Part shown: piece after piece, positions 1,666-21,700 of the stretch
How positions within the stretch are numbered: the first letter of the stretch is position 1
How the letters are laid out: every line of letters starts with the position of its first letter
Source of the DNA: an uncultured Actinomycetes bacterium
GTDB lineage: Bacteria; Actinomycetota; UBA4738; HRBIN12
Assembly (NCBI GenBank): GCA_963810915.1
Contig: CAWEPH010000004.1
Span: 67,788 to 131,787, forward strand
DNA length: 64,000 nucleotides
Direction of reading: 5' to 3'
Notes under the pieces: model-generated
What the model saw: only the letters and a program-made list of their open reading frames with translations
Databases searched by the model: none
Told to the model about the DNA's origin: nothing
Translations under genes and position numbers: made by a program

Positions 1666-2837
1666 GTTCGGATGCCGCCGCGTATCGCGGCCCCGACGAG
1701 GATCTGCCGCTCTCGATCGAGCCGGTCATCGGGTGGCGGGTCTGGCGCCTTGTGCGGCGCCAGGGGGTCCTCACGCTGACGGCGATAACCGCGCAGGAGC
1801 CGTGGCCCCCCAAGGAGGTGGTGCACGCGACATGCCGGCGTCTCACGACCCATCCTGCTCCCGTGCCCAACTGCTCCTGCGGGCTGTACGCGGCGAGCTC
1901 GCCGAACGATCTCGCGCACGCGGGGGTTTATGGCTACGCCGATGTCTGCGTCGTGGGCGCGATCGCGATGTGGGGCACGGTCGTAGAGCACGCCCGTGGC
2001 GCGCGCTCCGCGAAGGCCTATCCCGCGCGGCTCGCACTCGTCTGTGGCCCGTGCCTGCGCGTGGGCCTCGTCACATCTCCCTCGATCGTGGTGGGTGAAG
2101 CGGGGCCGCTGACGGCCCTCTGCCACTTCCATCAACGGCGTGACCGACGGCCGGGCCGACCTGCGGAGGAGATCCAAGCGGAGCTGCTCGATGCCTACGG
2201 GGTCGAGCCGCTGCCCCGTTCGCGGATCGCACGCCGCCCGTTCCGGCCCCAGGTCTCACCCACGCGGCTGGTGGAGCTGGCGGCGACACTCGTGGTCGGC
2301 CTCTTCAAGCTCGCCTTCTTCCTGTTCATGGTTCCCATCGTGATCGGCGGACTCGTGGTGCTCTTGGCGCTCTTCCTGCAGGTGGTAACGCTCGGACGCT
2401 TCGGCCAGGCGCCCGTGGATCCGGTGGTCTCGCCGCCCGCGGTCATCGCCGGGGTCGATGCGCTGAGGCCCGAGGCGCCCGCGGCGCCCGGACCTTCAGC
2501 GGTATCGCCGATGCGGGGTATCGCGACGTCGCATACGAGGTCACTGAGCAGGCCGCCCCCCGAGATCGCGTTCCTCTGCGGCATCGGTCGGGGTCACGCG
2601 GTGGAGCTCGTCCAGTGCGGTGATCGGGCTTCGGACCTCATCGGCCTCGCCCAACGCGCGTCGCCACACGGACGGGAAGCGGACTGCATCGACATGACGG
2701 ACGCGTACTCCCGCGGCGCGCACTTCTGGGTCTGTTGGACGACCTTCGAGCACGCCGACGTACGTCCGTGGGCGTCCACGCCTAACCCGTTCCTCGTCCC
2801 CGCTTCCGAAGGAGGAGCCGCCCATGGAGATCGGTGA
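1662..2837 (+). CDS. hypothetical protein: N-terminal Cys/His-motif domain (GWRVWR...HATC...CSCGLYA) plus 2 TM helices
   Basis: A GTG at 1662 overlaps the upstream TGA (GTGA), and the tracked ORF frame 1587-2837 is the same frame. Motifs read: WRVWRL, C-x13-CSCGLYA, VVGAIAMWGTVVEH. TM stretch LVVGLFKLAFFLFMVPIVIGGLVVLLALFL. I do not recognise a characterised family. Confidence 0.55.
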   Translation: MSSDAAAYRGPDEDLPLSIEPVIGWRVWRLVRRQGVLTLTAITAQEPWPPKEVVHATCRRLTTHPAPVPNCSCGLYAASSPNDLAHAGVYGYADVCVVGAIAMWGTVVEHARGARSAKAYPARLALVCGPCLRVGLVTSPSIVVGEAGPLTALCHFHQRRDRRPGRPAEEIQAELLDAYGVEPLPRSRIARRPFRPQVSPTRLVELAATLVVGLFKLAFFLFMVPIVIGGLVVLLALFLQVVTLGRFGQAPVDPVVSPPAVIAGVDALRPEAPAAPGPSAVSPMRGIATSHTRSLSRPPPEIAFLCGIGRGHAVELVQCGDRASDLIGLAQRASPHGREADCIDMTDAYSRGAHFWVCWTTFEHADVRPWASTPNPFLVPASEGGAAHGDR

Positions 2838-2979
2838 ACCCAAAGAGGTCCGAGAGATCGAGCCGATCACCGTCCCGGTCCCGGAGCCGATCGCGGTGCC
2901 GCACCCTGCACCGGAGCCGACCGCGCCGATTCCAGACCCCACGACGTACTGTCGTCTCAACCGAGTGCCGCAGGTTTGA
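2824..2979 (+). CDS. small Pro/Glu-rich ORF (51 aa), candidate micro-protein
   Basis: ATG at 2824 follows GAAGGAGGA (2808-2816) with 8-nt spacing. Translation: MEIGEPKEVREIEPITVPVPEPIAVPHPAPEPTAPIPDPTTYCRLNRVPQV. Overlaps the upstream stop by 14 nt. Too short to appear in the ORF track. Confidence 0.35.
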   Translation: MEIGEPKEVREIEPITVPVPEPIAVPHPAPEPTAPIPDPTTYCRLNRVPQV

Positions 2980-3022
2980 TCACTGCCGCGGCACCTCTGT
3001 GTCTCGGTCCTATGTGACCGAG

Positions 3023-4348
3023 CTACGCATCCTCGTCCTCGGTAGATTCCTCCTCGGGCGCCGGGCAGCAGCGATACTCCTGTGACTGGTCCAGCAACTC
3101 GATCTGCCGTTTGAGGAGCTTGTTCTCGAGCTCGAGTCGATCGAGGTCGAGGTGGATCTTGCGATGCAGCTCGGGTTCGCAGACTTCGCAATCATCCAGG
3201 CATCCCTTGACGATCACACCCGCGGTCGGCAGCGACGCGGTCCGCTCGAATTCGATCTCTGTCTTGATCGCCTCTGAGGGGAGGCCGCTCTTCTTGTCGA
3301 GGAGCCCCGCGTCGACGAGGGCGCTGTCCACTTCCGCGATCGCTGCGTCGCGAACGTCGGGCGGCAGGGGTGAGCCGCCGATCTGGAAAGCCACGCCCTC
3401 GAACGCGACGGCGAACCGCGCACGACCGGCCTGCGCGTACTGCGCCACGCTTTGCAGCCCGCGCGCCTCGACCTCGAGGCGAGCCGTGTTGGTGGCCGGA
3501 ACCTCTTGGGGCAGCGACGCGATCCCTCCGACCGATCGGACCGGATTGGCGAGAACCGGCGTTGGGGCTACGGGGTCGATCACCCGCCGGTCGATCGAGA
3601 TCAACTCGAACTTGACCGTCTCGCACTTGTTGATCCGGTAGAAGTAGAAGCTGAGCGCGTGGCACTGGTTCTGGTTGGTGAACTCACGCGAGGACGCCTC
3701 GAAGTGATCCTCGGATTCACCTTCTTGGTGTGAGCGCGTCGAGACCTCCCCGATCGAGAGCGCGTGAGCCTTCCGGGTCGCCTCGACGGACATGTGGTCG
3801 GCCATCGATGCATGGGCGCTGTGCTCGCGGAGGTAGTCCGCGGTGGACGAGGCGTTGTGGCTGCCGTGGGCGTTCGCGTCCGCGCTCGCGGAGAGGAAGC
3901 CGATCCCTCCGCTCGCGTCGCCGTGGAAGTCCCATGAGCCCTGATCCGTGCTGCGGCTCGACCCGTTGTCGGTGCTGCTTTGGTCGGACATCGCTGCCCT
4001 GAACGAGGACATCCGATACTGCTCCTCCGACATCTGCTCGCTGCGGTAACTCAGGTTGCTTTCGCTGTCGAAGCTGAATCGGCTCCGTCGGTCCGTCGTC
4101 GCCAGGCGCACTTTCTCGCCGGGTAAGAGGGTCGTGGTGTAGATCGGATCACCGAGTGCCAGCGGACCCGAGCAGCGGGTGAACCGCGTGTGGAGCGTGA
4201 CCTCCACGGTGAGTGGTTGTTCGTTCGGCCCGCGCAGCGATGTCGGGAAGACGAGTCGGCGACGCATCTCCATCACGTCGCACGGCGGGCATTCCTCCAG
4301 CGTGGGACAACAAGGCACCTCTTGGACATCCGTGGCGGTCTCAGCCAT
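3023..4348 (-). CDS. orphan protein with Cys clusters at both termini, Ser/His/Asp-rich centre and C-terminal coiled coil
   Basis: 441-aa ORF with SD GGGAGGAG upstream of its ATG. N-terminus CCPTLEECPPC; C-terminus CLDDCEVCEPE...LDRLELENKLLKRQIELLDQSQEYRCCP. More A/T-ending codons than its neighbours. No family recognised. Confidence 0.6.
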   Translation of the reverse strand: MAETATDVQEVPCCPTLEECPPCDVMEMRRRLVFPTSLRGPNEQPLTVEVTLHTRFTRCSGPLALGDPIYTTTLLPGEKVRLATTDRRSRFSFDSESNLSYRSEQMSEEQYRMSSFRAAMSDQSSTDNGSSRSTDQGSWDFHGDASGGIGFLSASADANAHGSHNASSTADYLREHSAHASMADHMSVEATRKAHALSIGEVSTRSHQEGESEDHFEASSREFTNQNQCHALSFYFYRINKCETVKFELISIDRRVIDPVAPTPVLANPVRSVGGIASLPQEVPATNTARLEVEARGLQSVAQYAQAGRARFAVAFEGVAFQIGGSPLPPDVRDAAIAEVDSALVDAGLLDKKSGLPSEAIKTEIEFERTASLPTAGVIVKGCLDDCEVCEPELHRKIHLDLDRLELENKLLKRQIELLDQSQEYRCCPAPEEESTEDEDA

Positions 4349-4473
4349 GGCCCGCTCCTCCCAACGTCATTTCCCGAGACTCAACCGTGCGCCACCTCCG
4401 TCACCATCGCGTCAACGCGACGTCACGACGGAGCTCGCGTAACGAAGATCGACTCAGGGAACGACGTCCTACC

Positions 4474-5649
4474 TCACCAGGTGACGGTATCGGTGGGCAG
4501 CGGAGGTGGAGCTGCCACGACGCCGCTCAGGAGTTGGTTGTAGAGACGATCGAACTTGAGCTTCGCGGGATGCACGGTCTCCATGTCGTAGCTACTCGCA
4601 TCCGAGGAGCTCATCGTTCTATCCGCGACGCTCGCCCAATTGCTGTCGGAGATGACCGTAGAGCGCAGAGCCTCTTCGAGCGCGAGGGTCGCTTCACGGG
4701 CCGCGGGGGGGACATCCCACCCTTCGACGGTGGCCAACAGCTTCGAACGGCCTTCCTGCAGTCGGCGCAGCGCATCGGCGTCCCCAGCGCTGATCGCCGC
4801 CCGGACCTGCGTGAGCTGCTGGCCCGATGTCTGCACGAGGTCGTGGGCTGTCCAGAGATAGTCGTGCAGAGTCGAGGCATGAGGCTCGGGAGTCGGAGGT
4901 GACCCGCGATGTCGGAGCGCGAGGACTGCTCCACTGACAGCGAGCGCCGCGATGACGCCGCCGATGACGAGGGATCGCACCCTGTGAGGCGGCTTCGAGA
5001 CCGGCGAAGGGGGTGGCGAGGCGACGTGGGGTGAGGGAGCGACCGCGCGGCCGTGGGTCTCGCCGCCCTCGCGTCGGGTCGCCATCCCCCGATCGTCGAT
5101 CCCGTCCAACGTCGCGACCAGCTTCGCGACACCCGCATCCCAGTCGTCCGTGATCGCGAGAGCTTGGATCGCCGGGAGGGATTTGATGGCGACGGGAAGT
5201 TCATCCCTCGGGGGCACGTGGGCGCCCTGAAGCAACGTGGGGATGACGACCAATCGCTCCCGCAGGGCGGCCTCGATCTCCAGACGCACGGGATCCACGG
5301 GGTTCGTCAGCCGACGCTGCCCATCGACGTCCTCGAGGGTGAGCCAATGGGGACCGATCAACGCGATGAGGACATCGCAATGGCTGACGGCGCGATCGAC
5401 GACGTCCTCCCAAAGCTGTCCGGGCGCGATGTTGTCCAGATCCATGAAGACCTGGTCCTTGCCGTAGCGCTCACCGAGCACGGTCTTGAGCGCTCGGGCG
5501 AAACCGGCACTGTCCTCGCGCCGATAGCAGACGAAGATACGCAGTCCCGGATCGTGGGTCGATCGAACACGCGTGTCACGGCGCTTCATGATGGCTGGTC
5601 CAGTTCCCTTCCGCTGAACCCCTCCGGGTGTGTAGCCGACCTCCGTCAC
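4474..5649 (-). CDS. TIR domain protein, single-pass membrane-anchored, with about 140-aa helical non-cytoplasmic C-terminal domain
   Basis: TIR_2-type N-terminus RIFVCYRREDSAGFARAL...VFMDLDNI..G..W...V..A...CDVLIALIG..W...DPVRLEIEAAL. TM helix VIGGVIAALAVSGAVLAL. Alternative start is the ATG at 5589 (MKRRDTRV). Confidence 0.8.
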   Translation of the reverse strand: MTEVGYTPGGVQRKGTGPAIMKRRDTRVRSTHDPGLRIFVCYRREDSAGFARALKTVLGERYGKDQVFMDLDNIAPGQLWEDVVDRAVSHCDVLIALIGPHWLTLEDVDGQRRLTNPVDPVRLEIEAALRERLVVIPTLLQGAHVPPRDELPVAIKSLPAIQALAITDDWDAGVAKLVATLDGIDDRGMATRREGGETHGRAVAPSPHVASPPPSPVSKPPHRVRSLVIGGVIAALAVSGAVLALRHRGSPPTPEPHASTLHDYLWTAHDLVQTSGQQLTQVRAAISAGDADALRRLQEGRSKLLATVEGWDVPPAAREATLALEEALRSTVISDSNWASVADRTMSSSDASSYDMETVHPAKLKFDRLYNQLLSGVVAAPPPLPTDTVTW

Positions 5650-5798
5650 CGCACCATCACCGACGCGTCACCGTGGTGAGCGACGGGAGTGGCCAGTCGT
5701 CAGTTCGAGGTCCCCCATGCAGCCGATAGGACGACGCGCCCATGAGGGTCAGAGTGGGTTGACCGTCCGCGGTCAGACGCGCACGACGAGGCAACGCC

Positions 5799-6791
5799 AT
5801 GCCAGGCAGCGGCATCTTCATCAGCTACCGGCGGGACGACTCGGCCGGGTTCGCGGGCCGGCTCTACGACCGGCTCGCCGAGCGGTTCGGCGCGGCCCGC
5901 GTCTTCATGGATATCGACGCGATCGCGCCGGGCCACGAGTTCGCGACCGATATCGAGAAGGCGCTCAGCGACTGCACGGCGTGCGTCGTGTTGATCGGCC
6001 GAGATTGGCTGACGATCACGGATGAGGACGGTCGACGGCGGCTCGACGATCCCACCGACTTCGTCCGGCTGGAGGTGGCGACCGCGATCCGACGTGGGAT
6101 CACGGTGTTCCCGGTCCTGGTGGACAAGGCGAAGCCGCCGTCATCGGCAGCGCTGCCGGACGAGATCCGTCCTCTGGCGGGACGACAGGCGATCGAACTC
6201 ACGAACGAGCGCTGGAACTACGACGTGGGCCGGCTCCTGCTGGCCCTCGAGAAGGAGGTCGGCCGACGGAACCCTGATCGCAGAGGCCGAGAGGGCCCTC
6301 TCGTCGCGGCGGGGTCGTCGCGCTACGTGGTCGATCGCGGCTGGGTGGATGGCCCTTGCCATCGCAGGCGTGACGGCTGGGTTGGCGACCCGGTCGGATG
6401 GGCCTCCACCTCCGGATCGGCATCCGCCAGCGGGTCCGGACAATCTCGTCGCCGCGCCACTGAACGGGAACTACGACGTCACCGTGGAGCTCCGAGCACG
6501 TCGCGGGACGCTGCTGATGAGGACAACCTTTGGGGCGAACCCGATCCCCAGGCGAGGGAGACACGGGGACGGATGGTCATCCCAGATCTGGACCTCCGAG
6601 TCGGGATCGTGGACCGTGATAGGAAGAACATAGCGGGAACTTGGTCGGACCTCGACGGGCGCTACATCGGTCCAAGGCGAGGCGGAGTGACGTGCGGACT
6701 CCAGGGAGTGCGGACGTCACGCGGACGTTTACGTCAGCCGAGACGCGATTCCTCAACGGAGCGCCCTCACACACCTTCGGCGGCATCCTGA
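5799..6791 (+). pseudogene. second TIR domain gene, apparently frameshifted after the TIR domain (TM segment lies in another frame)
   Basis: Intact TIR part: GIFISYRRDDSAGFAGRLYDRL...VFMDIDAI...CVVLIGRDWL...DFVRLEVATAI (5799 to about 6250). The expected TM helix WSIAAGWMALAIAGVTAGLA is encoded in the 6022-6633 frame. Further protein-like text (DVTRTFTSAETRFLNGAPSHTFGGILTIHWD) sits in a third frame, 6641-6868. Confidence 0.6.
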
Positions 6792-7515
6792 CGATCCATT
6801 GGGACATGCGCAGCGAACCGAGCCCGTGGATCGCACGTTCCACGTCGACGGGACGGCGACGCGGCTGAGCGCTCAGGCGCTCGCGTCGCTCGGAGGGTCC
6901 TCCGGTACGGCTCCCGTCGCCCGCGTCCAGGTACTTGCGGACCTCGCGATCCTCTTGCTCGCTGTCTTCCGGCTTCTCCTGGACGATCCGCGTGAGGTAG
7001 ACCTCGACGTCGCGGCGCACGATCTCTTCCACCTTGGTGGCGAACAACGGGAAGACCCGCTCGTGGAAGTCGTGACGATGCTGATACTGCTTGTAGCGAC
7101 CGCCGCCCTCGATGAAGAGCCAACCCTCGGTCTTCAGCAGCTCCGCCGTGCGCCGGAAGTGCCGCCACCGTTCCCCGTAGTGGAAGAAGCCGTCGAGCCC
7201 CACCGCGGCGGCGACCATCAGGCTGACGACGAACGTCGTCGGCTTCACCCATTCCCATAGCTCGTTGCTGTTGGCCGGGGGACTCAACGAGACCAGGGCG
7301 GGCACGAGCACGCCACCGGTGATCGCGATCACACGGAGCGCGGCGTACCTCCGGTTGGCGTCTCGGGCTCGTCCGTCGAACCAGAGCACCTGATCGAGCC
7401 ATCGGTCCCTCATCCACTCCTTCTTGTCCTCGTGCATGGCCAGCATCTGGATCGCGCGCAGCAGCCGATCTCGGGTGGTTCCGCCGGTCGTCGCGGGGAT
7501 CTCCGTGTCGCTCAT
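6577..7515 (-). CDS. DUF4231 / SLATT-family 2TM protein
   Basis: Start ATG at 7515 (MSDTEIP). Pattern read: WLDQVLWFDGRARDANRRYAALRVIAITGGVLVPALV ... TTFVVSLMVAAAVGLDGFF..ERWRHFRRTAELLKTEGWLFIEGGGRY, which fits the DUF4231/SLATT layout. The last about 100 codons look non-coding (Arg/Pro-rich), so the 3' end is uncertain. Confidence 0.65.
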   Translation of the reverse strand: MSDTEIPATTGGTTRDRLLRAIQMLAMHEDKKEWMRDRWLDQVLWFDGRARDANRRYAALRVIAITGGVLVPALVSLSPPANSNELWEWVKPTTFVVSLMVAAAVGLDGFFHYGERWRHFRRTAELLKTEGWLFIEGGGRYKQYQHRHDFHERVFPLFATKVEEIVRRDVEVYLTRIVQEKPEDSEQEDREVRKYLDAGDGSRTGGPSERRERLSAQPRRRPVDVERAIHGLGSLRMSQWIVRMPPKVCEGAPLRNRVSADVNVRVTSALPGVRTSLRLALDRCSARRGPTKFPLCSSYHGPRSRLGGPDLG

Positions 7516-7600
7516 CGCGAAGCCATCTCCCCTCTTCCGCTGCGACCGAACGTACGCCCGGTATCCGGCCGGTGCAACGCGAGCGTATGCTGAGCCCGCC

Positions 7601-9163
7601 ATGGCAACGGCGGTGGGACGGGTACCCGTGCGTCTGCGCATCGGCGTCACGGGACATCGCTCGCTTCCCGACGAGCAGGCGATCGCCGCCCGCGTCGACG
7701 AGGTCCTCGGGCGGCTGCAGCGGATGCTCCCTGCGAGCCCCACGACGCCCGTCCTGTTCGAGGTCGTGTCGCCCTTGGGCGAAGGGGCCGACCGCATCGT
7801 CGCCGAGCGCGTGCTGCGGATCCCTGACGCGATCATGGAGGCACCGTTGCCGCTGACGCCGGCGGACTACGAGCGGGACTTCGCGTCCGCGGACTCGCGG
7901 GAGCGGTTCGCCTCGCTGTTGGAGCGAGCCGAGCGGGTGTGGGTCGTGGGCGATCACGACCGGCTCGACGCGTATCGCGTCACCGGCAACTACGTGGTGG
8001 ACAGCTGCGACGTGCTCATCGCCGTCTGGGACGGGTTGCCCTCCCGCGGCCCGGGCGGCACCGCGGACGTCGTTGATCGGGCACAGGATCAGGCGATGCC
8101 GATGTTCCGGATAGGCTCGGATCCCCCGTTCGACATCCAAGACCCGCCGATCCCCATCGCACCGCATCTGATCGAGGAGATCGAACGCTTCAACGATGCC
8201 GATGCGCCCGCCTCGCTCGGCACGCCGCGGCTGGTGCCCTCACAGACCACGCCGTCCGGGGCAGAGGAGACCCGGCTCCGGACGTGCTTGGAGTGGGTGG
8301 AGCCCCAACACCGTCGCGCCGCCGCGATCGCGAACCGGGCCCGCCGTCGCTTCACGTGGGGGAGCCGAGCGCTCTTCCTCCTGTCCGCGTTCGCCCTCCT
8401 CGCCGCCGCCCTCTCCGTGACATCTGAGGGTGAGGAGATGGAGCGGCGGTTCGCCTACGTCGAGGTCGCGTTGATCGTGGTGGCTCTGGCTCTTTGGCTC
8501 CTGGTCCGGCACCGGTTGCACGACCGATGGATCACGTCGAGGTTCCTGACCGAGCGCCTGCGCTCAGCCGGGTTCCTCGCGTTCGCGGGAGAGCGAACCG
8601 GCATCGGCTCGACGCCCGAGGGCGAACGCGGTGAGGCGTCCCAGGAGTGGATCACCCGCGTCTGCCGAGAGGTGTGGCGCACACGCCCTCGGATCGGCGA
8701 CGCCGATCGGTCGCTCGATGACGTGAAGGCGATGCTGATCGTGGACTGGGTGCATCGACAGCAGACCTACTACGAAGCGCGCGCGAGGGACCATCTGGTC
8801 ACATCCAGGTTCCTCCTGGTCGCCGGCGCCATCCTGTTCGCCGGCACGATCGTGGCGGCCACGATGCACGCATCGGGGCTGGTGGGGGACCGGCTCTCGC
8901 ATGCGGTGGTGGTGCTCACGATCGCGTTGCCGGCGTTCGCGGGCGCGCTGGCGGGCATCGCGGGCTTGGAATTGCATGCACGACACGCGGCTCGGTTCCG
9001 TTCGATGGCACGACGCCTCGCCGACCTGCAGGACCGCCTCGCCTCGGCTGCCGGGATGGGCGCCGTTCGAGCCATCGCGTACAGGGTCGAGGCCGAGCTG
9101 CGGACGGAGGGGGAAGCCTGGATCGACGTGATGCGGTTCCAGGACGTGGAGCTTCCGTCCTGA
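7601..9163 (+). CDS. SLOG-like Rossmannoid domain fused to C-terminal 4-TM SLATT-like module
   Basis: ATG at 7601. N-terminal domain: RIGVTGHRSL, SPLGEGADRIVAERVL, LIAVWDGLPSRGPGGTADVVDRA (YpsA/LOG/DprA-like motifs). C-terminal half has two 2TM units, each followed by an R..(A/T)ER/ARH helix. QQTYYEARARDH...LLVAGAILFAGTIVAA...VVVLTIALPAFAGALAGIAGL resembles SLATT_4/5-type domains. Confidence 0.6.
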   Translation: MATAVGRVPVRLRIGVTGHRSLPDEQAIAARVDEVLGRLQRMLPASPTTPVLFEVVSPLGEGADRIVAERVLRIPDAIMEAPLPLTPADYERDFASADSRERFASLLERAERVWVVGDHDRLDAYRVTGNYVVDSCDVLIAVWDGLPSRGPGGTADVVDRAQDQAMPMFRIGSDPPFDIQDPPIPIAPHLIEEIERFNDADAPASLGTPRLVPSQTTPSGAEETRLRTCLEWVEPQHRRAAAIANRARRRFTWGSRALFLLSAFALLAAALSVTSEGEEMERRFAYVEVALIVVALALWLLVRHRLHDRWITSRFLTERLRSAGFLAFAGERTGIGSTPEGERGEASQEWITRVCREVWRTRPRIGDADRSLDDVKAMLIVDWVHRQQTYYEARARDHLVTSRFLLVAGAILFAGTIVAATMHASGLVGDRLSHAVVVLTIALPAFAGALAGIAGLELHARHAARFRSMARRLADLQDRLASAAGMGAVRAIAYRVEAELRTEGEAWIDVMRFQDVELPS

Positions 9164-9208
9164 CGCCGACGTGAACGGAGGCCGAAGGCATCCGCGATCG
9201 GCGACCGC

Positions 9209-9237
9209 GTGACGCAGCCGTGACGCTCGAGTGACGG
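9209..9237 (+). promoter_or_regulatory. three direct heptads GTGACGC / GTGACGC / GTGACGG at exact 11-bp phasing (SARP-box-like)
   Basis: Heptads start at 9209, 9220 and 9231. They lie 62 nt upstream of the peptidase ATG (9299). The same core with the same phasing occurs at 12823-12851 on the other strand. Confidence 0.5.
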
Positions 9238-9298
9238 CCCGGGAGTACCCCGATGTCGATCGAGCGATCGTTGTTGGGGAAGACTGGAGGTAGCAACC

Positions 9299-10117
9299 AT
9301 GGCTGGACGACGGCTCGCCGCTGATGCCCCCGAGCGGAGTGCTAGCGACCTCACCGGACCACATCTGCTGGGCCGCGTCTTCATCCCGGATCCCAGGGAC
9401 TGGTCGCTGGGTCGACTCATGGAGGTCGCCGAGCCGGCGGAGTCGATCTTGCAACAGACGGTCGAGCAGGTGATGGAGACCACCGACTACTTCTCCGATT
9501 GGCGGTCGTACCTGGTCTTCTGGCGGTGGCTGAAGCGCCATCGCCAACCGCCCGAGAAGAAGGACGTCACGCCGCCATGGGAACTCGAGGTCCAGCTGGA
9601 TCAGGGGCAGACCAACCATTGCGTGGGATTCGGGTGGGCGGGCTGGGGCGACGCGGCCCCGGTGAAGGACGTGTTCCAGAACACCGACGCGCACGCTATC
9701 TACTACGAGTGCAAGACCATCGATGGGCAACCTCACGGTGAGAATGGGTCGACGGTCCGTTCCGGAGCGCTGGCGATGCGCACCAGGGGTCGGCTGGCCG
9801 CGTTCGCCTTCGCAACGTCGACGGCCGAGATCAACCAGTGGATCGATGCACATGGTCCGGTCGTCGTCGGCACCACGTGGACGAACGACATGTTCGCTCC
9901 GGATGCGAACGGGTACATCGAACCGACGGGTGGGCCCGCCGGCGGGCACTGCTACCTGATGCTGGACCGGATCGATGAAGAGGACGCATACCTGTTCCAG
10001 AACTCCTGGGGCGGCAACTGGGGTCTGGATGGTCGGTTCAAGATGAAGCGGACCGACTTCGAGGCGCTCCTTGCGGACTTCGGCGAGGCGTGCTGCGCCG
10101 CAGAATTGACGTTGTAG
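9299..10117 (+). CDS. papain-like cysteine peptidase (family C1), no signal peptide
   Basis: Catalytic motifs in order: QGQTNHCVGFG (Gln-6/Cys), GGHCYLMLD (His), FQNSWGGNWGLDG (Asn-Ser-Trp). Confidence 0.8.
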   Translation: MAGRRLAADAPERSASDLTGPHLLGRVFIPDPRDWSLGRLMEVAEPAESILQQTVEQVMETTDYFSDWRSYLVFWRWLKRHRQPPEKKDVTPPWELEVQLDQGQTNHCVGFGWAGWGDAAPVKDVFQNTDAHAIYYECKTIDGQPHGENGSTVRSGALAMRTRGRLAAFAFATSTAEINQWIDAHGPVVVGTTWTNDMFAPDANGYIEPTGGPAGGHCYLMLDRIDEEDAYLFQNSWGGNWGLDGRFKMKRTDFEALLADFGEACCAAELTL

Positions 10118-10140
10118 CGGAACCGTCGCATCGTCGTCGG

Positions 10141-10464
10141 ATGGTGGACGTCTCCTTGGCAGCTGCCGATTCGGGCAGCGTTCGATCCGTCCACGTGGGG
10201 GACGTCATCGTCGTCTCGCTGGAAGAGAGTCCCACGTCGGGCTTCCGCTGGGATGTGGACGCGTTGACGCCCTGCCTCGGTGCGGCCGGAGATACGTTCG
10301 TTCCAGCGCCCGACGCTCAGCTTGGAGGTGGTGGAACCCGGCTCCTCCGCTTCGAAGCCCGAACGGTCGGAGAGGGCCCCATCGCGCTCCGACTTTGGCG
10401 GTCCTGGGAAGGAGACGCTTCCATCGTCGAGCGCTTCGCCGCGACGATCGCCATCCAGCCATGA
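10141..10464 (+). CDS. chagasin-family (I42) cysteine peptidase inhibitor
   Basis: All three chagasin loops can be read: ESPTSGFRW (NPTTGY/FxW loop), QLGGGGTRLLRF (GxGG loop), LWRSWEG (RPW loop). ATG at 10141 (MVDVSLAA); the tracked ORF begins at 10090. Confidence 0.75.
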   Translation: MVDVSLAAADSGSVRSVHVGDVIVVSLEESPTSGFRWDVDALTPCLGAAGDTFVPAPDAQLGGGGTRLLRFEARTVGEGPIALRLWRSWEGDASIVERFAATIAIQP

Positions 10465-10494
10465 TCCCGGACACGAGCCGGTGACGATCGAGCG

Positions 10495-11163
10495 TCAGGT
10501 CTCGAGCCGGCCGTACTCCACCAGCCACTGGAGCTCGGGCGCGCGCTCGAAGATCGCGACCCCTCCTCGCGATGGCCGCGCTCCGATCTGCATGTTGTCG
10601 TCCACCACCATCGTGATGTCGTCGGCGTGAGGCCACGCTCCGTTGCGATCGGAGAAGTGGTAGAAGATGAAGTCGCCGGAGAGGGTGTCGTCTGGCTCGT
10701 GGAACGTCTTCACCCGGCTATCGGTGCGGATCCCGTCCGATAGGTGGGGTAACGCGATGTCGCGCACCTCCTGCACGGCGCGGACCACCAAACCCGAACA
10801 GTCACCGTCCGGCGGGAAGATGTGACCGAAGACGTACTTCTCGCCCAGGTGCTTCTTCGCGGCGGTCACGAGTGGCGATTCATCCCTGTCGTCGCGGACG
10901 ATGCGCACCGCCACGCCGGGTTCGTCGTAGTTCGAGCCCCCGATCACGACCTTGTCGCCGAACGAGCCGGCGACCAGCTGTTCCTCGAGCATCTTCATGA
11001 TCTGTGGCCTGGGATGTTCCTCCTTCAGGTGCCCGTGGAAGTGGTACGGCGGCGCGATCAGCAGCAACTTCGCTCGGGCGCTCTCGATCGCCTCATCGAG
11101 TTCCTGACCCGGATCGTGGAACCCCGTCCCAAAGGTCGTCACCTGGTACTGCTTGCCGCTCAT
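10495..11163 (-). CDS. NlpC/P60 (C40) domain protein with unknown N-terminal half, no signal peptide
   Basis: C-terminal GDCSGLVVRAV ... LSGDFIFYH ... WPHADDITMVV fits the Cys-His-His NlpC/P60 order. Lies 59 nt downstream of the peroxidase gene on the same strand. Confidence 0.7.
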   Translation of the reverse strand: MSGKQYQVTTFGTGFHDPGQELDEAIESARAKLLLIAPPYHFHGHLKEEHPRPQIMKMLEEQLVAGSFGDKVVIGGSNYDEPGVAVRIVRDDRDESPLVTAAKKHLGEKYVFGHIFPPDGDCSGLVVRAVQEVRDIALPHLSDGIRTDSRVKTFHEPDDTLSGDFIFYHFSDRNGAWPHADDITMVVDDNMQIGARPSRGGVAIFERAPELQWLVEYGRLET

Positions 11164-11222
11164 GCCAGTTCACTCCTTTCCCAGTCGCCCCGATCGTCGT
11201 CGCATCGCCGGCGCGTCTCTCG

Positions 11223-12773
11223 TCACCCGAGCGGCGCGAGCAGGGACTTCTTCCCCTCGAAGGCGAAGAGCAACAGGTCGACCATCCGGAACGTCGTCTC
11301 GTCGGGACCGAGTGTCGGGCGCCATGTCGGGTTCCGGACGATCGACGTCTGGCTGCCCTCCATCGCTCGGTGGAAGGTCTCGGCGACGATCCGCGCACCG
11401 ACGCCCTTCAGCTTCCCCTGGTTGAGCTCCGCCTCACGAAGGATGTAGAACCACAACGGCGTGTTCGCGATCACCGCGTCCCGCTGCTGGGCGGCGAGTC
11501 CGTCGAGCACCGCCCCGTTGTTCCCGTCTCGCACCTGCGCGCTGGTGAGCTTGGTCAAGGCCACGCCTTTGTTCTTCAGGAACGTAGCCATCTGTTGTCC
11601 GGTGGCGAGCTTCACCATCCTCGCCCGCGTCAGGTTGCGGAACGCGAGGTTGTCCTCGTCGGGCGCGAACCCGGGGAGGTGTGCCAACGGGTTGGATAGC
11701 TTCGTGTCGATCCGCATGGCCCGGTTGGACTTGGCGGCGGGCACGATGAGGCCGGGCTTGCCGGCGTCGCCGAAGTCGTAGAGCCTCCGGAAGTCCGCGA
11801 TCCACGTGCTCGGGAGACGCGGATCGCCCAGGAAGTCACCGCTGAGTCCCGAGAACGCGAACAGCAGGTCGAGGGACCCGGCGCCGTTGTCGAAGACGGC
11901 GTTCCAGTTGTAGGCCGCTCGGACCATCGAGTGCCCGAGCCGGTACGCCGCCACCGAGAACTCGATCGGCATCGTGGGGACGTCGGTCGGACTCACCCCC
12001 ACCTCGAACGCCTTCCTCCCGTGAGCGAAGACGTCGTTCACGACGCTCGCCGCGCAGATCCGGGGCAGGAAGTCGGTGCGGAGCATCCACTGGTAGTGCC
12101 TGGTGACGACCCTGCGGGCCCGGGCGAAGGCCTGGCTGGGCGGCACGGACGCAGGCAGCGTGTCGACGACACGGTTGTGGAAGCGGATGAGGGCGAGGTG
12201 CGTCTGGGCGACGGCGAGGTTCTCGTCGTTCCGTGGATCCGGGATGATCGCCGTGCGCTTCTCCGCCGGCGTCGTGCCCTCGCCGCGGGGAAGATCGAAC
12301 CCGACCATCACAGAGAGCCCATCGGCGGCAACCGTCTTGCCCATCTTGAGGTGAAGACCGTCGGCCTCGTAGAACTTCGCCGACTCGGGCTCCGTGGGCC
12401 CGGCACCGTAGAGGGAGTCGAGATCGAGACTCGGCGAGCGTCCCTGCAGGAGATCCGCGGGCGAGATGTTCTGGCCGAGCATGACGCTCGTCCTGTCGAA
12501 GGTGAGGTCGTGGTCGGCGAACTGACCGAGGTACGTGAAGCCCGCCGGGATCGTCGATTCCCCGCCGCCGGCCGAGACCATGGCGTTGCCGAGTGCCTTG
12601 CGATTCGCATCGCTCAGCTGGCGGTCGACCCCCCTCGGCCCCATCCTGCTGAAGCGGAACGGCGGGATCTGGGCCTCCAGGGCGGCCGTCAAGGTTCGCT
12701 CCCGGCCTCCGACGCTCTCCCCGAGCAGTCCTTCACCGATGACGAAGTAGCTCTCGGAACCATGCCGTTCCAC
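11223..12773 (-). CDS. haem peroxidase of the peroxidase-cyclooxygenase (animal haem peroxidase) superfamily
   Basis: LGQFADHDLTFD (distal His), LIRFHNRVV (REHN-like), SVAAYRLGHSMV (proximal His), LWFYILREAE. Confidence 0.8.
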   Translation of the reverse strand: MERHGSESYFVIGEGLLGESVGGRERTLTAALEAQIPPFRFSRMGPRGVDRQLSDANRKALGNAMVSAGGGESTIPAGFTYLGQFADHDLTFDRTSVMLGQNISPADLLQGRSPSLDLDSLYGAGPTEPESAKFYEADGLHLKMGKTVAADGLSVMVGFDLPRGEGTTPAEKRTAIIPDPRNDENLAVAQTHLALIRFHNRVVDTLPASVPPSQAFARARRVVTRHYQWMLRTDFLPRICAASVVNDVFAHGRKAFEVGVSPTDVPTMPIEFSVAAYRLGHSMVRAAYNWNAVFDNGAGSLDLLFAFSGLSGDFLGDPRLPSTWIADFRRLYDFGDAGKPGLIVPAAKSNRAMRIDTKLSNPLAHLPGFAPDEDNLAFRNLTRARMVKLATGQQMATFLKNKGVALTKLTSAQVRDGNNGAVLDGLAAQQRDAVIANTPLWFYILREAELNQGKLKGVGARIVAETFHRAMEGSQTSIVRNPTWRPTLGPDETTFRMVDLLLFAFEGKKSLLAPLG

Positions 12774-12822
12774 GGTCGCTCCTATCCGGGTCGCTCGTCT
12801 CTCACGTGAACGTCGCCGCCGT

Positions 12823-12851
12823 CCGTCACCGCATCGTCACCGGCCCATCAC
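12823..12851 (-). promoter_or_regulatory. three direct heptads GTGATGG / GTGACGA / GTGACGG at 11-bp phasing (SARP-box-like), upstream of the peroxidase operon
   Basis: Read on the minus strand: GGTGATGGGCCGGTGACGATGCGGTGACGG. Heptad starts are 12851, 12840 and 12829. They sit about 50 nt upstream of the ATG at 12773 and directly downstream of the SARP gene stop. Confidence 0.5.
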
Positions 12852-12888
12852 CTCGGGGCGTCCAGCGGTACCGGTCGGATCCCGAGGG

Positions 12889-13803
12889 CTATCCGTCGAA
12901 CGCGGTCACGAGCTCCTTCATCAGGGCAGAGGGAGCCAGCTGGAGTTCGTCCGCGAGCAGCCTCCGGTACCACTCGTACTGGCGGATGGCGCTCACCGTG
13001 TTGCCTTCGGCGAGATACACCCCGATCAGCGCGCGGTGGGCGCTCTCTCTGAGGGGTTCCGCGGCGACGGCCGCCAACGCCGCCTCCACGGCTTCGGCAT
13101 ACATGCCCGCTGCGACCAGACGTTCGCTCAGACGCTCGAGCGCGTGCAGCCGGAGTTGCAGCAACCTCTCGCGCTCGAAGAGTGCCCACTCGTCGTACCA
13201 ATCCGGGAGCAGCGCACCGTCGAGCTGCAGGAGCTTGAGCTCGTCCGACTCGAAGGCACCGGAGGATCCGAGGATCGTGCGCGCCACGCCGGTCGCCTCT
13301 CTGTGGTCGACCTGGACGCGCGGGTCGAGCCAGGCGTGATCGACGGACGCGCTGACGAGGGTGAGGCCCAGCCTATGCAGGCGCCACAACGCCGAGCGGA
13401 GGCTCGCCGATGCCCGCTTCTCGGACACGTCGGGCCAACACGAGGATGCAACGAAGCAGCGTGAAAGCGAGCGATCGTGCACGGCGAGGAACGCCACCAC
13501 TCGTTGCGCACTCGTAGGGATCTCCACCGCACGTGCGTCGGCGGAGAGTTCGAAGCCTCCCAGCAGGCAGAGACGAAATGTCGGCTCTCTGGAAGCACCG
13601 GTCTGGAGCCGCTCGCTGGCCACCGATGGTTCGCCGCGAACCTTGAGCCCCATGAGCGCCCTCCCGGCATGACCCGAGGAGTAGCAGCTGGATCCTTGGT
13701 CGAACCCATCCTTCGGGTCAACCCGGAGGCTAGTGAAGGTGCTCTTCCAGGCATAGTGGGATATCCGACCATCACCCGTTCGACCGACTGGGAGAGGGCG
13801 CAT
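12889..13803 (-). CDS. SARP/AfsR-type regulator (OmpR-like winged helix + BTAD domain)
   Basis: FRLCLLGGFELS...VEIPTSAQRVVAFLAV (wHTH). DWYDEWALFERERLLQLRLHALERLSERLVAAGMYAEAVEAALAAVAAEPLRESAHRALIGVYLAEGN...AIRQYEWYRRLLADELQLAPS (BTAD). Start uncertain; alternative ATG at 13653. Confidence 0.75.
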   Translation of the reverse strand: MRPLPVGRTGDGRISHYAWKSTFTSLRVDPKDGFDQGSSCYSSGHAGRALMGLKVRGEPSVASERLQTGASREPTFRLCLLGGFELSADARAVEIPTSAQRVVAFLAVHDRSLSRCFVASSCWPDVSEKRASASLRSALWRLHRLGLTLVSASVDHAWLDPRVQVDHREATGVARTILGSSGAFESDELKLLQLDGALLPDWYDEWALFERERLLQLRLHALERLSERLVAAGMYAEAVEAALAAVAAEPLRESAHRALIGVYLAEGNTVSAIRQYEWYRRLLADELQLAPSALMKELVTAFDG

Positions 13804-13860
13804 CTACCCGAAGCGGCGGCGCCCGCTCGTCGGGTTCTTTCGGAGCAGGTGAGGCCGCGG

Positions 13861-15999: not shown

Positions 16000-16284
16000 C
16001 GTGGCTCCCTTCTGACATTCTCGTGGCGCCCATCACGGGCGGCGCACCGTCCCGTCCACCCTTGTTCGCCATTCGTAGCCCGGCTCCGCATACTTCCGAA
16101 GGGGAGAAAGGCCTGAGTCCGCTGGGGCTTCCAGCGTCAGTCGGCGGTCGGGGATCCTGAGCGACAGGCTCGCCGTGAGGTCGCCACTCCTGCCGCCCTC
16201 GAACCAGGTTGTGATTCTTGAATGCTCCCGGATCAGGCCAACCGGTCGCAGAGACCGACGGGCATCATGCAATCGCATCAGGTT

Positions 16285-17100
16285 CCCTGCCGTATCGTCG
16301 CGCCCAAGGCGAGCGACGGGAGGTCGAATGATGCGACTGGACGGCAAGGTTGCTCTCATCACGGGCGGCACCTCTGGGATCGGCGAGGCGACCGCCGTGT
16401 TGTTCGCCGCCGAAGGTGCGAACGTCGCGATCACCGGCCGCAGCCAGGAGCGCGGCGACGCGGTAGCCGAGCGGATCGCATCCGCCGGCGGTGAGGCGAT
16501 CTTCGTGCGTGGCGACGTGGGGTCAGCCGATGAGTGCCGACGCTCGGTCGATCGCACGATGGAGGCGTTCGGTCGCATCGACGTGCTCTTCAACAATGCC
16601 GGCGTCTACGTCGCCAACGACACCCTCGGCTGCTCCGAGGACGAGTGGGACGCGCAGGTCGACACGAGCCTGAAGGGGGCGTTCTTGATGTCGAAGTACG
16701 CGCTGCCGCACATGATCGAGCAGGGTTCGGGCTCGATCATCCACTGCGCGTCCGGATGGGGGCTCGTCGGCGGCGCCCGCGCCGTCGCCTACTGTGCGGC
16801 GAAGGGCGGCATGGTCGTGATGACGAAGGCGATGGCGATCGATCACGGACCGCAGGGCATCCGTGTGAACGCGGTATGCCCCGGCGACACCGACACGCCC
16901 ATGGAACACGAAGACGCCCGGCAGCAGGGCCTGGAGTGGGACGCGTACGTGCGCAGCGCGGTGGCCGGTCGCGCGATCGAGCGCATGGCCACACCCGAGG
17001 AGATCGCCCGCGCCGTGCTCTTCCTCGCGAGCGACGATTCCTCGTACATCACGGGAACGGCTCTGCCCGTCGATGGCGGGGGCGTTGCCGATTGAACGCC
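16285..17100 (+). repeat. segmental duplication copy A (about 816 bp, includes the intact SDR gene)
   Basis: Hand alignment with 32016-32830: shared from CCCTGCCGTATCGTCGC to TTGAACGCC, with only a handful of substitutions and small indels. Confidence 0.85.
16328..17095 (+). CDS. short-chain dehydrogenase/reductase (SDR)
   Basis: [22 protein letters not shown] (TGxxxGIG), NNAG, S...YCAAKGG catalytic Tyr-x3-Lys. ATG at 16328 lies inside the longer tracked ORF. Confidence 0.85.
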   Translation: MMRLDGKVALITGGTSGIGEATAVLFAAEGANVAITGRSQERGDAVAERIASAGGEAIFVRGDVGSADECRRSVDRTMEAFGRIDVLFNNAGVYVANDTLGCSEDEWDAQVDTSLKGAFLMSKYALPHMIEQGSGSIIHCASGWGLVGGARAVAYCAAKGGMVVMTKAMAIDHGPQGIRVNAVCPGDTDTPMEHEDARQQGLEWDAYVRSAVAGRAIERMATPEEIARAVLFLASDDSSYITGTALPVDGGGVAD

Positions 17101-17293
17101 CACGACTCACAGCCGCGCATGTCGATCGGCACCTAGCGCGATCCCGAGCTTCGATCCATGGGCGGCTCCTGAGCCGGACCGTGCAGCTCTGATGGACTTG
17201 TAGACAGTCATGAGTGGGTCCCTTCGCACCTGGTGCCCGTGGTCACTCTCTTGGCCCTGCATCAAGTACATGAGTGCGCGGGCCGGGGCGTGG

Positions 17294-18262: not shown

Positions 18263-18419
18263 GACACCGCTCCTCGAGTCGTCGCCGTCGATCCGTCCGT
18301 CGGCTTCGATCGCGCTGATGACGTTCGGCTCTGCTCCCTGCTCGGTCCCTGCCATGGTCTGTCCCTCTCTCGTTGCGGGAGACGGCTTCGGCGGAGTTGC
18401 CGACCGCATCCTGAGTTCT

Positions 18420-18450
18420 CGTACTAAGTACCCGTACTAAGTACGGTACT
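18420..18450. promoter_or_regulatory. candidate TetR operator: tandem CGTACTAAGTAC repeats with GTAC cores
   Basis: CGTACTAAGTAC occurs at 18420-18431 and again at 18433-18444, followed by GGTACT. Lies in the divergent gap between the MDR gene and the TetR gene (ATG 18465). Confidence 0.45.
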
Positions 18451-18464
18451 GCTACCATGACGGT

Positions 18465-19139: not shown

Positions 19140-19234
19140 ACGGATGCGTGCACGGATCCAACCTGACACCAGCGAGTCAGGGTCCGCACTGCCGCTTGCG
19201 TGAACGTTACGGGTGCGCCCAGCATTGAAGAGGT

Positions 19235-21083: not shown

Positions 21084-21103
21084 CCACGACAGAGGAGGTC
21101 GCA

Positions 21104-21672: not shown

Positions 21673-21700
21673 GAGCGCAGAGGTCGGAGGAACGCTCGAC

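Follow-up and report, generated by a model that had tools for sequence, protein, structure and literature searches.

A candidate TIR, DUF4231/SLATT and SLOG-SLATT module of Thoeris-like composition in an uncultured actinomycete

Do the four genes between nt 4474 and 9163 of this actinobacterial contig form a module in which a nucleotide signal would gate a membrane effector, or are they neighbours with separate roles? A sequence-only reading of the locus had proposed the former, describing four genes in two back-to-back divergent pairs. GC3 frame analysis and the translations bear out this layout (A/B and C/D), and the proposed coordinates needed small corrections at the start of gene A and in the length of gene C. 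In the window, by which we mean the whole 64-kb stretch of DNA analysed, A and B are the only matches to TIR profiles and C and D the only matches to SLATT profiles. The divergent region between the starts of A and B spans nt 5590..5798, and a search of it found no sigma-70-type promoter match; that between C and D (nt 7516..7600, 85 nt) is 100% identical to its counterpart in a sister strain. The flanking genes encode a papain-like peptidase, an NlpC/P60 protein, a haem peroxidase and an ECF sigma factor, with no classic defence genes among them, and the surroundings are not clearly a defence island. Profile searches recovered TIR_2, DUF4231 and NCBIfam SLATT_1 as had been anticipated; the SLOG families expected on D were not matched, and PADLOC recognised no system at the locus.

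Gene A (nt 4474..5589, minus strand) is intact and encodes a protein of 371 aa. Its description as a TIR-TM gene on the minus strand stands, while its start moves from nt 5649, the site of an upstream GTG, to the ATG at nt 5589, the start assigned in the sister strain. A cytoplasmic TIR domain (residues 18-158, nt 5116-5538; Pfam TIR_2, E 6e-13) is followed by a single TM helix assigned by hydropathy (residues 207-225, nt 4915-4971) and by a predicted extracytoplasmic C-terminal domain (residues 226-371, nt 4477-4914), for which Pfam, NCBIfam and PADLOC gave no family match. Compared with the sister strain, dN/dS is 0.02 in the TIR part; in the C-terminal part it is 0.37, with a dS of 0.26 (flanking genes, 0.01-0.06).

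Gene B, on the plus strand, has an intact TIR domain of about 155 aa (nt 5799..6262; Pfam TIR_2, E 5e-14), with a dN/dS of 0.17 against the sister strain. Its 84% nucleotide identity to locus L003 stops at nt 6262. The 3' half of the gene (nt 6263..6870), which overlaps an unconserved 3' extension of the C open reading frame, has decayed, leaving traces of a TM helix and of an extracytoplasmic domain: the TM segment IAAGWMALAIAGVTAGLAT in frame +1, NLWGEPDPQ in frame 0 and WSSQIWTSESGSWTV in frame +1. It was thus correct to call this gene disrupted, because past about nt 6262 other frames encode the TM helix and the motifs conserved in the tail. Compared with the sister strain, this segment is 79% identical, with 53 bases in indels and 95 that cannot be aligned; indel bases are absent from D, from the other tallied flanking genes and from the conserved core of C (nt 6915-7515). 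Intact orthologues of B are present in three related loci (L086, L088 and L089). The TIR genes are unstable in this lineage: the tail of B is decayed here, and the sister strain has a split A and a frameshifted B TIR.

Both TIR domains keep the Glu that had been noted in a VRLE(I/V) motif. In A this is E104 (VRLEI, nt 5278-5280, minus strand), a candidate catalytic residue, and in B it is E92 (nt 6072-6074, plus strand). In an alignment of 64 sequences, made up of A and B, three published TIRs and 59 TIRs from loci with D relatives, the corresponding column holds Glu in every one. Of the PDB sequence matches tested, the best was that of B to the SARM1 TIR (E 0.003), in which E92 aligns with the Glu of 'DWVHKEIV', which we take to be the catalytic E642.

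Gene C (nt 6871..7515, minus strand, 3' end approximate) encodes a DUF4231/SLATT protein of about 214 aa with two TM helices (residues 59-77 and 93-111). The identity first given to it is secure, at 87.3 bits against Pfam DUF4231 (residues 41-147, nt 7075-7395; cutoff 24.7) and 95 bits against NCBIfam SLATT_1 (cutoff 41). The length of 312 aa (nt 6577-7515) is not: the reading frame is open down to nt 6577, and we place the gene at about 6871-7515 because its closest homologues among the matches listed (59-100% identity) measure 181-301 aa, mostly 203-251 aa, and because from about residue 203 onwards it no longer resembles the sister-strain protein. Relative to the sister strain, the frame of C is shifted by a 2-nt difference at 6911/6914. 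Within segment 6871-7515 there are 3 indel bases, all at the 3' edge, at or before nt 6914, and no nonsynonymous change is found in C.

These comparisons bear on whether the locus is a decaying, non-functional remnant, or else serves a purpose other than defence, such as envelope-stress or developmental cell-death signalling. The frameshifted 3' half of B, the 2-nt indel at the 3' end of C, the damaged TIR genes of the sister strain, flanks that are not classic defence genes and the extracytoplasmic domains of the TIR proteins are all consistent with such a reading. However, purifying selection is evident on the TIR of A, on C and on D, the last being 99% identical to its sister-strain counterpart at the amino acid level, with no indels and a dN/dS of 0.19. 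A single intact TIR is, moreover, enough in most related loci, and the rapid evolution of A's outer domain is in keeping with an arms race. We consider a remnant or a non-defence role unlikely.

Gene D (nt 7601..9163, plus strand, 520 aa) is the candidate sensor, and its N-terminus had been described as SLOG-like. In the AF2 model (pLDDT 87.6 at full length, 90.1 for the N-terminal domain), residues 1-200 (nt 7601-8200) are a YpsA-like domain of SLOG fold. Foldseek searches of the PDB with this domain returned YpsA as the best match (2nx2, E 1.3e-7; TM-score 0.59 by query length, 0.68 by target length), followed by ShosA, DprA, the BcThsA SLOG domain with 3'cADPR and, more weakly, LOG. The top five PDB matches and that at rank 11 are SLOG proteins, with probabilities of 0.99-1.00. 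Among viral structures, 40 matched at E <= 1e-3, the named ones all being SLOG-type (YspA or DprA-like), and a plasmid homologue of the domain carries a DUF1273 annotation. Structure prediction thus agrees with the earlier assignment. At the level of sequence, no Pfam, NCBIfam or PADLOC model reaches threshold on residues 1-200, no Pfam SLOG family (YpsA PF06908, YAcAr PF10686, LSDAT_prok and others) matches D at E <= 1, and a PDB match to D is not detectable; relatives of D attain only 14-18 bits against Pfam YpsA and YAcAr, where cutoffs are about 28.

The GVTGHR, GEGAD and PGGTADVV-type motifs previously read from the translation were located at residues 15-20 (GVTGHR), 60-65 (GEGADR) and 150-154 (GPGGT), and across 44 homologues these positions vary little or not at all, with GxTGHR and GxGGT invariant; full-length homologues of D number more than 756. 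[quoted passage not shown] The loop after strand 1 is the one that touches the nucleotide in SLOG/Rossmannoid domains (PMC9503650), and the placing of the other two motifs is our own reading.

The 4-TM SLATT-like tail ascribed to D is also present. Its four helices form two hairpins, at residues 257-302 (nt 8369-8506; helices 257-275 and 284-302) and 404-453 (nt 8810-8959; helices 404-422 and 435-453). NCBIfam SLATT_1 matches residues 382-510 (nt 8744-9130) with 50.1 bits, above its cutoff of 41, and Pfam SLATT_1 gives 21 bits, under its cutoff of 26.3. The same two-hairpin layout is found in a 289-aa SLATT_3+SLATT_1 protein of a Neorhizobium plasmid (hhalign E 4e-4), which adjoins a type-VII-like TIR and which we used as a ThsH-like proxy.

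The SLOG domain of D might instead be an enzyme, either a LOG-like N-glycosidase or one that degrades or makes the signal, and would then set a threshold or generate the signal itself. Polar residues that are invariant or nearly so (H19, R20, E61, D64, R65, D93 and D144) would suit catalysis, the GxGGT(A)(D/E) motif resembles the PGGxGTxxE of LOG, and catalytic roles have been proposed for some SLOG clades by Aravind and colleagues (PMC9503650). Yet among solved structures its nearest relatives, YpsA, ShosA/DprA and the ThsA SLOG domain, include no established LOG-type N-glycosidase, LOG itself being a weaker match, and a domain joined directly to a pore module is more easily explained by gating than by metabolism. 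We consider an enzymatic role unlikely.

If D senses a product of the TIR proteins, the genes should keep company elsewhere, a check that had been proposed for all four. In 48/80 species-level loci the D relative has a TIR open reading frame no more than 6 kb away, and in 30 no more than 300 nt away; in 33 of the 48, D and its nearest TIR share a strand. The other 32/80 loci have no TIR within 6 kb; DUF4062-STAND genes neighbour D in two of them, and STAND or WD40 genes in three more. Among 50 sampled neighbours of D relatives, 39 match Pfam TIR_2, and STAND, TPR and WD40 modules are also frequent. A trio of TIR, DUF4231 and D was found in 9/9 loci read with a D relative 41-99% identical to ours (L081, L003 and L085-L091), and again on a Caballeronia plasmid; C lies divergently upstream of D also in L081 and L085-L089, with gaps of 13-122 nt. 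The genes do therefore recur together, but the conserved unit is one TIR, one DUF4231 protein and one SLOG-4TM protein, rather than a set of four. Across the wider family, a profile grown from C detects SLATT-like open reading frames in 64/80 loci, with only five of them, in four loci, lying outside the D gene.

The SLOG domain itself changes partners. It is found joined to patatin (L078) and to AAA ATPases, occurs by itself in a TIR-caspase-SLOG-TIR operon of a Rhizobium plasmid, and in one case (P0306) is part of a single 810-aa TIR-SLOG-DUF4231 chain. Such fusions and alternative partners are the pattern expected of a modular sensor. Alternatively, the TIR could be the killing effector, depleting NAD+ in the style of Avs, CBASS-TIR or TIR-pAgo, and D either an additional, independent effector or a membrane sensor upstream of it. 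This would accord with the STAND NTPase, TPR and WD40 modules often seen among the neighbours of D relatives, the majority of these neighbours having a TIR, and with individual TIR-STAND and TIR-WD40 fusions; the architecture is that of Avs-type proteins, whose TIR is regarded as an effector. The authors of 10.64898/2025.12.03.692087 raise the same caveat. It is nevertheless the least probable of the readings weighed here: the role of SLOG as a receptor for TIR products is established in ThsA, fusion of the same SLOG to patatin or to SLATT fits a sensor upstream of an effector, and TIR-SLOG-SLATT single chains exist.

The analysis shows what the domains are, how the proteins sit in the membrane, that the catalytic Glu is kept, that the association of the genes is conserved and that fusion proteins exist. 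The reading that we consider probable is a Thoeris-like three-component system, in which a TIR product would bind the SLOG head and open a SLATT pore. A membrane-anchored TIR protein – A being the intact gene and B a decaying second copy – would hold its TIR domain in the cytoplasm and its fast-evolving domain outside the membrane. On a trigger that is presumably phage- or envelope-related, the TIR would turn NAD+ into an ADP-ribose-derived signal, which would bind the cytoplasmic YpsA-like SLOG domain of D. The two SLATT hairpins of D, with four TM helices in all, would then, probably joined by the 2-TM SLATT protein C that lacks a sensor, rearrange or oligomerise into a membrane-permeabilising assembly, and permeabilisation would stop the infected cell. 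Signal production, ligand binding by SLOG, pore formation, co-assembly of C and D and a role in defence are what we infer from comparative genomics. Counting against this reading are the two 'SLOG and 4TM' systems, possibly of the D family, that gave no defence in E. coli, the failure of every SLOG profile to reach threshold on D, the 32/80 loci with no TIR nearby, the instability of the TIR genes in this lineage, the blank PADLOC result and surroundings that are not clearly a defence island. A more specific version, which we hold tentatively and regard as doubtful, is that in an actinobacterial clade C and D form an obligate heteromer that is the ligand-gated pore, with the hypervariable outer domains of the TIR proteins sensing cell-envelope events. 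Were this true, the locus would represent a three-gene Thoeris type not yet described, and a missing third gene could explain why two-gene 'SLOG and 4TM' constructs gave no defence.

How much of this is new? The sequence-only reading knew of no experimentally characterised system of this exact composition, and the locus looks like a variant of the Thoeris family of anti-phage alarm systems, of a kind that published work had predicted. The idea behind it is not new, because the SLATT family name already records the association with SLOG, because the pairing of TIR with SLATT has been validated as type VII Thoeris, and because 'SLOG and 4TM' effectors have been listed, as unverified. The constant DUF4231 partner may be new.

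Among known families, the YpsA/YspA clade of SLOG proteins (DUF1273, DUF2493) supplies the best structural match of D, namely YpsA, but Pfam YpsA and YAcAr matches are all sub-threshold in members of the D family and absent from D itself. Type III Thoeris, which combines multiple TIRs with a SLOG effector, was considered and set aside: the two TIRs here score only 31.8 and 47.6 bits against NCBIfam ThcB4, over about 60 residues, where the cutoff is 220. In type I Thoeris a TIR protein, ThsB, is likewise paired with a SLOG protein, the SIR2-SLOG protein ThsA, whose SLOG domain binds 3'cADPR (10.64898/2025.12.03.692087), and the BcThsA SLOG domain is a top structural match of D. Unlike ThsA, D has its SLOG domain at the N-terminus, closest to YpsA, and a membrane module in place of the NADase; with SIR2 absent and no ThsA match in PADLOC or NCBIfam, D was rejected as a ThsA.

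Closer in composition is the putative effector labelled 'SLOG and 4TM' or '4TM SLOG' in Tables S1/S2 of 10.64898/2025.12.03.692087, which by its label has the composition of D, a SLOG domain and four TM helices, beside a TIR. These effectors are given there as unverified, and two such systems, possibly of the D family, gave no defence when tested in E. coli; their domain order may be the reverse of that in D, and no third DUF4231 gene is mentioned there. TIRs A and B have no detectable similarity to the published '4TM SLOG' TIRs, whose cluster bears no more than a distant resemblance to the TIRs that accompany D relatives. Type VII Thoeris, validated as the TIR protein ThsB with the SLATT effector ThsH and with canonical cADPR as its signal (10.64898/2025.12.03.692087), offers the other comparison. 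No A-like or B-like TIR peptide occurs among the rows of its Table S1 that precede the SLATT rows. As in type VII, a TIR gene here adjoins a SLATT membrane effector, with both C and the TM half of D passing NCBIfam SLATT_1; unlike type VII, D bears an additional N-terminal SLOG domain, and a separate second gene, of the DUF4231 family, is present.

The four genes at 4474-9163 appear, on balance, to encode a Thoeris-like pathway, TIR signalling of this type being common to bacterial, plant and animal immunity. A TIR protein would make an NAD+ derivative, this derivative would bind the SLOG domain of the fourth gene, D, and the ligand-bound SLOG would gate a SLATT membrane assembly of which the third gene, C, is probably a co-subunit. 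We regard this reading as moderately probable. A sequence-only reading had picked out the same four genes, and they are borne out by third-codon-position GC, in a high-GC window, and by their translations; the finding is real and that first reading was a good one.

Gene A lies on the minus strand and encodes a TIR protein with a single hydrophobic helix (residues 207-225) and a C-terminal domain. Its description as a TIR-TM protein thus stands, while the span first proposed, 4474-5649, is revised to 4474-5589. Residues 18-158 match Pfam TIR_2 (E 6e-13), while searches of Pfam, NCBIfam and PADLOC yielded no family for the C-terminal 146 aa. Positive charges before the helix suggest a cytoplasmic TIR and an extracytoplasmic tail. 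Gene B, on the plus strand from 5799 onward, carries a TIR_2 domain equal in quality to that of A (E 5e-14). It is alignable to the human SARM1 TIR, and its E92 falls on the Glu of 'DWVHKEIV', which we take to be the catalytic E642 (SARM1 numbering). Glu occupies this column in every one of the 64 sequences aligned (A, B, three published TIRs and 59 from loci of D relatives), confirming the retained Glu noted earlier. Across the window, the TIR profile matched only A and B and the SLATT profile only C and D; against the ThcB4 model of type III Thoeris, both TIR proteins scored far under its cutoff. A rival, less probable explanation is that the TIR is itself an NADase effector and not the maker of a signal.

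Gene D (7601-9163, plus strand) encodes 520 aa with four TM helices arranged as two hairpins, and its residues 382-510 pass NCBIfam SLATT_1 (50 bits, cutoff 41). The profile searches proposed in the sequence-only reading recovered TIR_2, DUF4231 and SLATT_1 but no SLOG family on D: its first 200 residues have no match in Pfam, NCBIfam or PADLOC, and sequence and profile searches of the PDB with D returned no SLOG protein. The SLOG-like N-terminus was established by structure prediction. Across 44 aligned D homologues the motifs GVTGHR, (E)GADR and WDG..GxGGT vary barely or not at all. AlphaFold2, run on this alignment and on a second one of 44 sequences, gave confident models, with a pLDDT of 87.6 (full length) and 90.1 (residues 1-209). 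Foldseek with full-length D gave long-helix noise alone, such as ABC transporters, and the N-domain was therefore modelled separately. The top five PDB matches of this model are all SLOG proteins: YpsA (2nx2, E 1.3e-7, TM-score 0.59 by query and 0.68 by target), ShosA (8zva, E 6e-5), DprA (5mll, E 4e-4), the BcThsA SLOG domain with 3'cADPR bound (7uxs, E 2e-3) and LOG (5zbl, E 1.6e-2). Among viral models (BFVD), 40 matches were found at E <= 1e-3, and those with names are DprA-like, YspA or DUF2493, thus all SLOG types. As modelled, the N-domain is a YpsA-like SLOG domain outside current HMM libraries, and its sequence-level link is weak, with sub-threshold YpsA or YAcAr matches among D relatives and a Rhizobium plasmid homologue annotated DUF1273. 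It may represent a new, uncatalogued SLOG family. The nearest structural matches to this domain are stand-alone actinophage SLOG proteins, among them the BFVD entry A0A222YVC8 from Streptomyces phage Mildred21 (E 5e-10; TM-scores of 0.61 relative to the query and 0.82 relative to the target), and such proteins could be phage decoys or sponges for TIR signals.

Gene C starts at 7515 on the minus strand and, as had been proposed, is a DUF4231/SLATT protein with two TM helices (Pfam DUF4231, 87 bits; NCBIfam SLATT_1, 95 bits). The proposed 3' end at 6577, to which the reading frame in the window is open, did not hold. The closest homologues among the matches listed (59-100% identity) range from 181 to 301 aa, the majority having 203-251 aa, and the frame is altered by a 2-nt difference from the sister strain at 6911/6914; for these reasons we place the real end near 6871-6900. 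By BLASTP, C has no significant similarity to the TM half of D or to a proxy for ThsH, the SLATT effector of type VII Thoeris, and it is linked to both by profiles only.

Relatives of D are numerous. The full-length protein has more than 756 homologues, and its N-domain recovers 6,070 clusters (50% identity) at E <= 1e-3 and 3,125 at E <= 1e-10. With one genome per species, tblastn confirmed D relatives at 430 places; relatives are present in at least 430 species. The best 80 of these 430 loci, one per species, formed the neighbourhood set and span Actinomycetota, Chloroflexota, Acidobacteriota, Pseudomonadota and other phyla. When ORFs around the 80 D genes were clustered, the sole large neighbour cluster not overlapping D was TIR-containing and occurred in 59 loci; 39 of 50 sampled members carried Pfam TIR_2, and STAND NTPase, TPR and WD40 modules were also frequent in these 50. 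Using a TIR profile built from D-neighbour TIR sequences, we found a TIR ORF within 6 kb of the D relative in 48 of the 80 loci and within 300 nt in 30, the nearest TIR being co-stranded with D in 33 of the 48. Among seven large neighbours inspected at loci without a TIR, two carried DUF4062, a domain we take to be TIR-related, and five carried STAND NTPase or WD40. Some loci with a stand-alone SLOG (L037, L045, L048, L052, L065, L072 and L074) share several conserved neighbour families (clusters 4, 5, 8 and 12), and for three representatives (of clusters 4, 5 and 12) Pfam returned nothing.

Within the 80-locus set, made up mostly of distant loci, a separate DUF4231 gene turns up only rarely, in four. 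Closer to D the picture is constant: all nine loci inspected for the trio (L081, the sister strain; L003; L085-L091), in which the D relative is 41-99% identical to D, hold one TIR gene, one DUF4231 gene and one D relative. The co-location proposed earlier recurs in other genomes. Contigs matching in length those that bear D homologues are also the source of several additional C homologues. The DUF4231 gene is divergent from D and 13-122 nt upstream in L081 and L085-L089, and lies upstream on the opposite strand in L003, where it and the D relative are both frameshifted in the assembly. The syntenic loci L090 and L091 have it downstream of D in convergent orientation, followed by a TIR-WD40 gene. 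This constant DUF4231 partner may be new. Directly upstream of the D relative and on its strand, L090 (3344-4937) and L091 (3268-4854), which count as non-independent for this purpose, also carry Prok-JAB, ThiF (E1-like) and ThiS (ubiquitin-like) genes; this set could belong to sulfur-carrier housekeeping or make up a regulatory module.

The SLOG domain also occurs with other partners. In L060 and L067 it is not fused to SLATT and a separate SLATT gene adjoins, so that SLOG and SLATT travel together, fused or not. Single chains include P0306 (810 aa), combining TIR_2, SLOG and a weak DUF4231 match (E 0.027, under cutoff), P0275, with tandem SLOG-SLOG ahead of SLATT, a patatin-SLOG fusion (L078, 1541-3373), and SLOG joined to AAA or STAND-like ATPases (L067, P0248). 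On a Caballeronia plasmid, a gene for SLOG-DUF4231 (577 aa) is followed by a TIR gene and this in turn by a WD40 gene. Rhizobium binae plasmid p4 (L092, 2611-4980) has an operon of TIR, caspase, a stand-alone SLOG homologous to the D N-domain (annotated DUF1273) and a further TIR, which is like type IV Thoeris in composition and differs by the extra SLOG gene. Swapped between effector types, and always in TIR contexts, the domain behaves like a sensor module as judged from these architectures. A less probable rival is that it is an enzyme and not a receptor.

Comparison with the sister strain shows the state of the genes. Flanking genes are ~98.5% identical, and differences are concentrated in the 608 nt that follow the TIR domain of B (79% identity, with 53 indel bases and 95 bases that do not align) and in A's linker (4971-5100, 76% nt identity). 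Orthologues of B are intact in L086, L088 and L089 as TIR-TM proteins with an extracytoplasmic domain; in the window, remnants of the helix and that domain are scattered over different frames, from which it follows that B's 3' half is lost, as its earlier description as disrupted implied. Random long-read assembly error is an unlikely source of these frameshifts, given that most indels cluster at 6176-6914, with smaller groups at 4370-4621 and 5001-5081, and that none fall in D or in the other intact genes of 6915-13782. A further, less probable rival explanation is decay of the locus in this genome, or a role other than defence. B's lost half belongs to this account, as does the sister strain, in which A is split and B's TIR frameshifted. 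The dN/dS is 0.02 for A's TIR and still 0.17 for B's, and indels are lacking in D, in the other flanking genes tallied and in the conserved core of C (nt 6915-7515). A's outer domain (4477-4914) shows 87% nt identity, dN/dS 0.37 and dS 0.26 (0.01-0.06 nearby), and the outward-facing part of A is some ten times more diverged than the flanking genes, which suggests fast evolution under diversifying selection, or allelic exchange. Hypervariable outer domains of TIR-TM proteins may be new.

Several features surround the locus. GC is 0.66-0.68 at 2001-22000 and 0.68-0.73 elsewhere in the window. Searches of the locus and its surroundings turned up neither a sigma-70 promoter nor a terminator or tRNA, and the whole 64 kb lacks tRNA genes. 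At 3023-4348 (minus strand) lies a 441-aa protein with Cys-rich ends (CCPTLEECPPCD ... CLDDCEVCEPE ... YRCCP) and a Ser/acid-rich middle, without matches in Pfam, NCBIfam or PADLOC; its gene is 98.6% identical in nucleotides to that of the sister strain. Two genes of unknown function (620 and 391 aa) occupy 1-2837, the former frameshifted at nt 964 relative to the sister strain. There (L081, 1-5278) they come after genes for SIR2, a pair of DSPc phosphatases and a small ATPase, with weak matches to mad3, mad8 and PtuA in PADLOC; this may be another conflict system. Downstream of D, 9299-12773 encodes a papain-like peptidase (Peptidase_C1, weak match), an NlpC/P60 hydrolase and an animal-haem-peroxidase-family protein, followed in L081 by a BTAD regulator and an ECF sigma factor.

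The locus is a variant of a known, already predicted kind and not a new category. The very name SLATT, 'SMODS and SLOG-associating 2TM effector domain', places the SLOG association on record, and Aravind and colleagues predicted SLATT to be a pore-forming effector responsive to nucleotide or ADPr signals (PMC9503650, PMC7159879). A preprint of December 2025 (10.64898/2025.12.03.692087) validates type VII Thoeris, TIR with SLATT, with canonical cADPR as signal, and lists 29 putative types; Table S2 of the preprint names 'SLOG and 4TM' effectors of Streptomyces and Nitrospira, which gave no defence in E. coli. By label these resemble D, but their TIRs show only remote similarity to the TIRs neighbouring D relatives, so that an identity with D is no more than possible. 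Searching the D loci and a protein database with the two tested and three further Table S1 TIRs recovered a single contig, in which a secreted protein and a UDPGP gene adjoin the TIR; the A and B peptides are absent from the portion of Table S1 examined. Most predicted effector types are still unverified, and this locus defines a large family (more than 3,000 SLOG clusters, at least 430 species) whose sensor domain HMM libraries miss, while the constant DUF4231 third gene in one clade offers a concrete test design for a SLOG-gated SLATT pore. As a stand-in for ThsH we used a 289-aa SLATT_3+SLATT_1 tandem protein encoded next to a TIR gene on a Neorhizobium plasmid; that TIR shares 62% identity with one of type VII. 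The TM half of D shares the two-hairpin layout of this proxy and aligns to its second module (hhalign E 4e-4, probability 35%), so that D can be read as a ThsH-like body bearing a SLOG head, ThsH being represented by the stand-in. If the proposed mechanism is true, a nucleotide-receptor domain would here be attached to the pore module of type VII Thoeris, with a logic akin to a ligand-gated channel downstream of TIR-STAND sensors.
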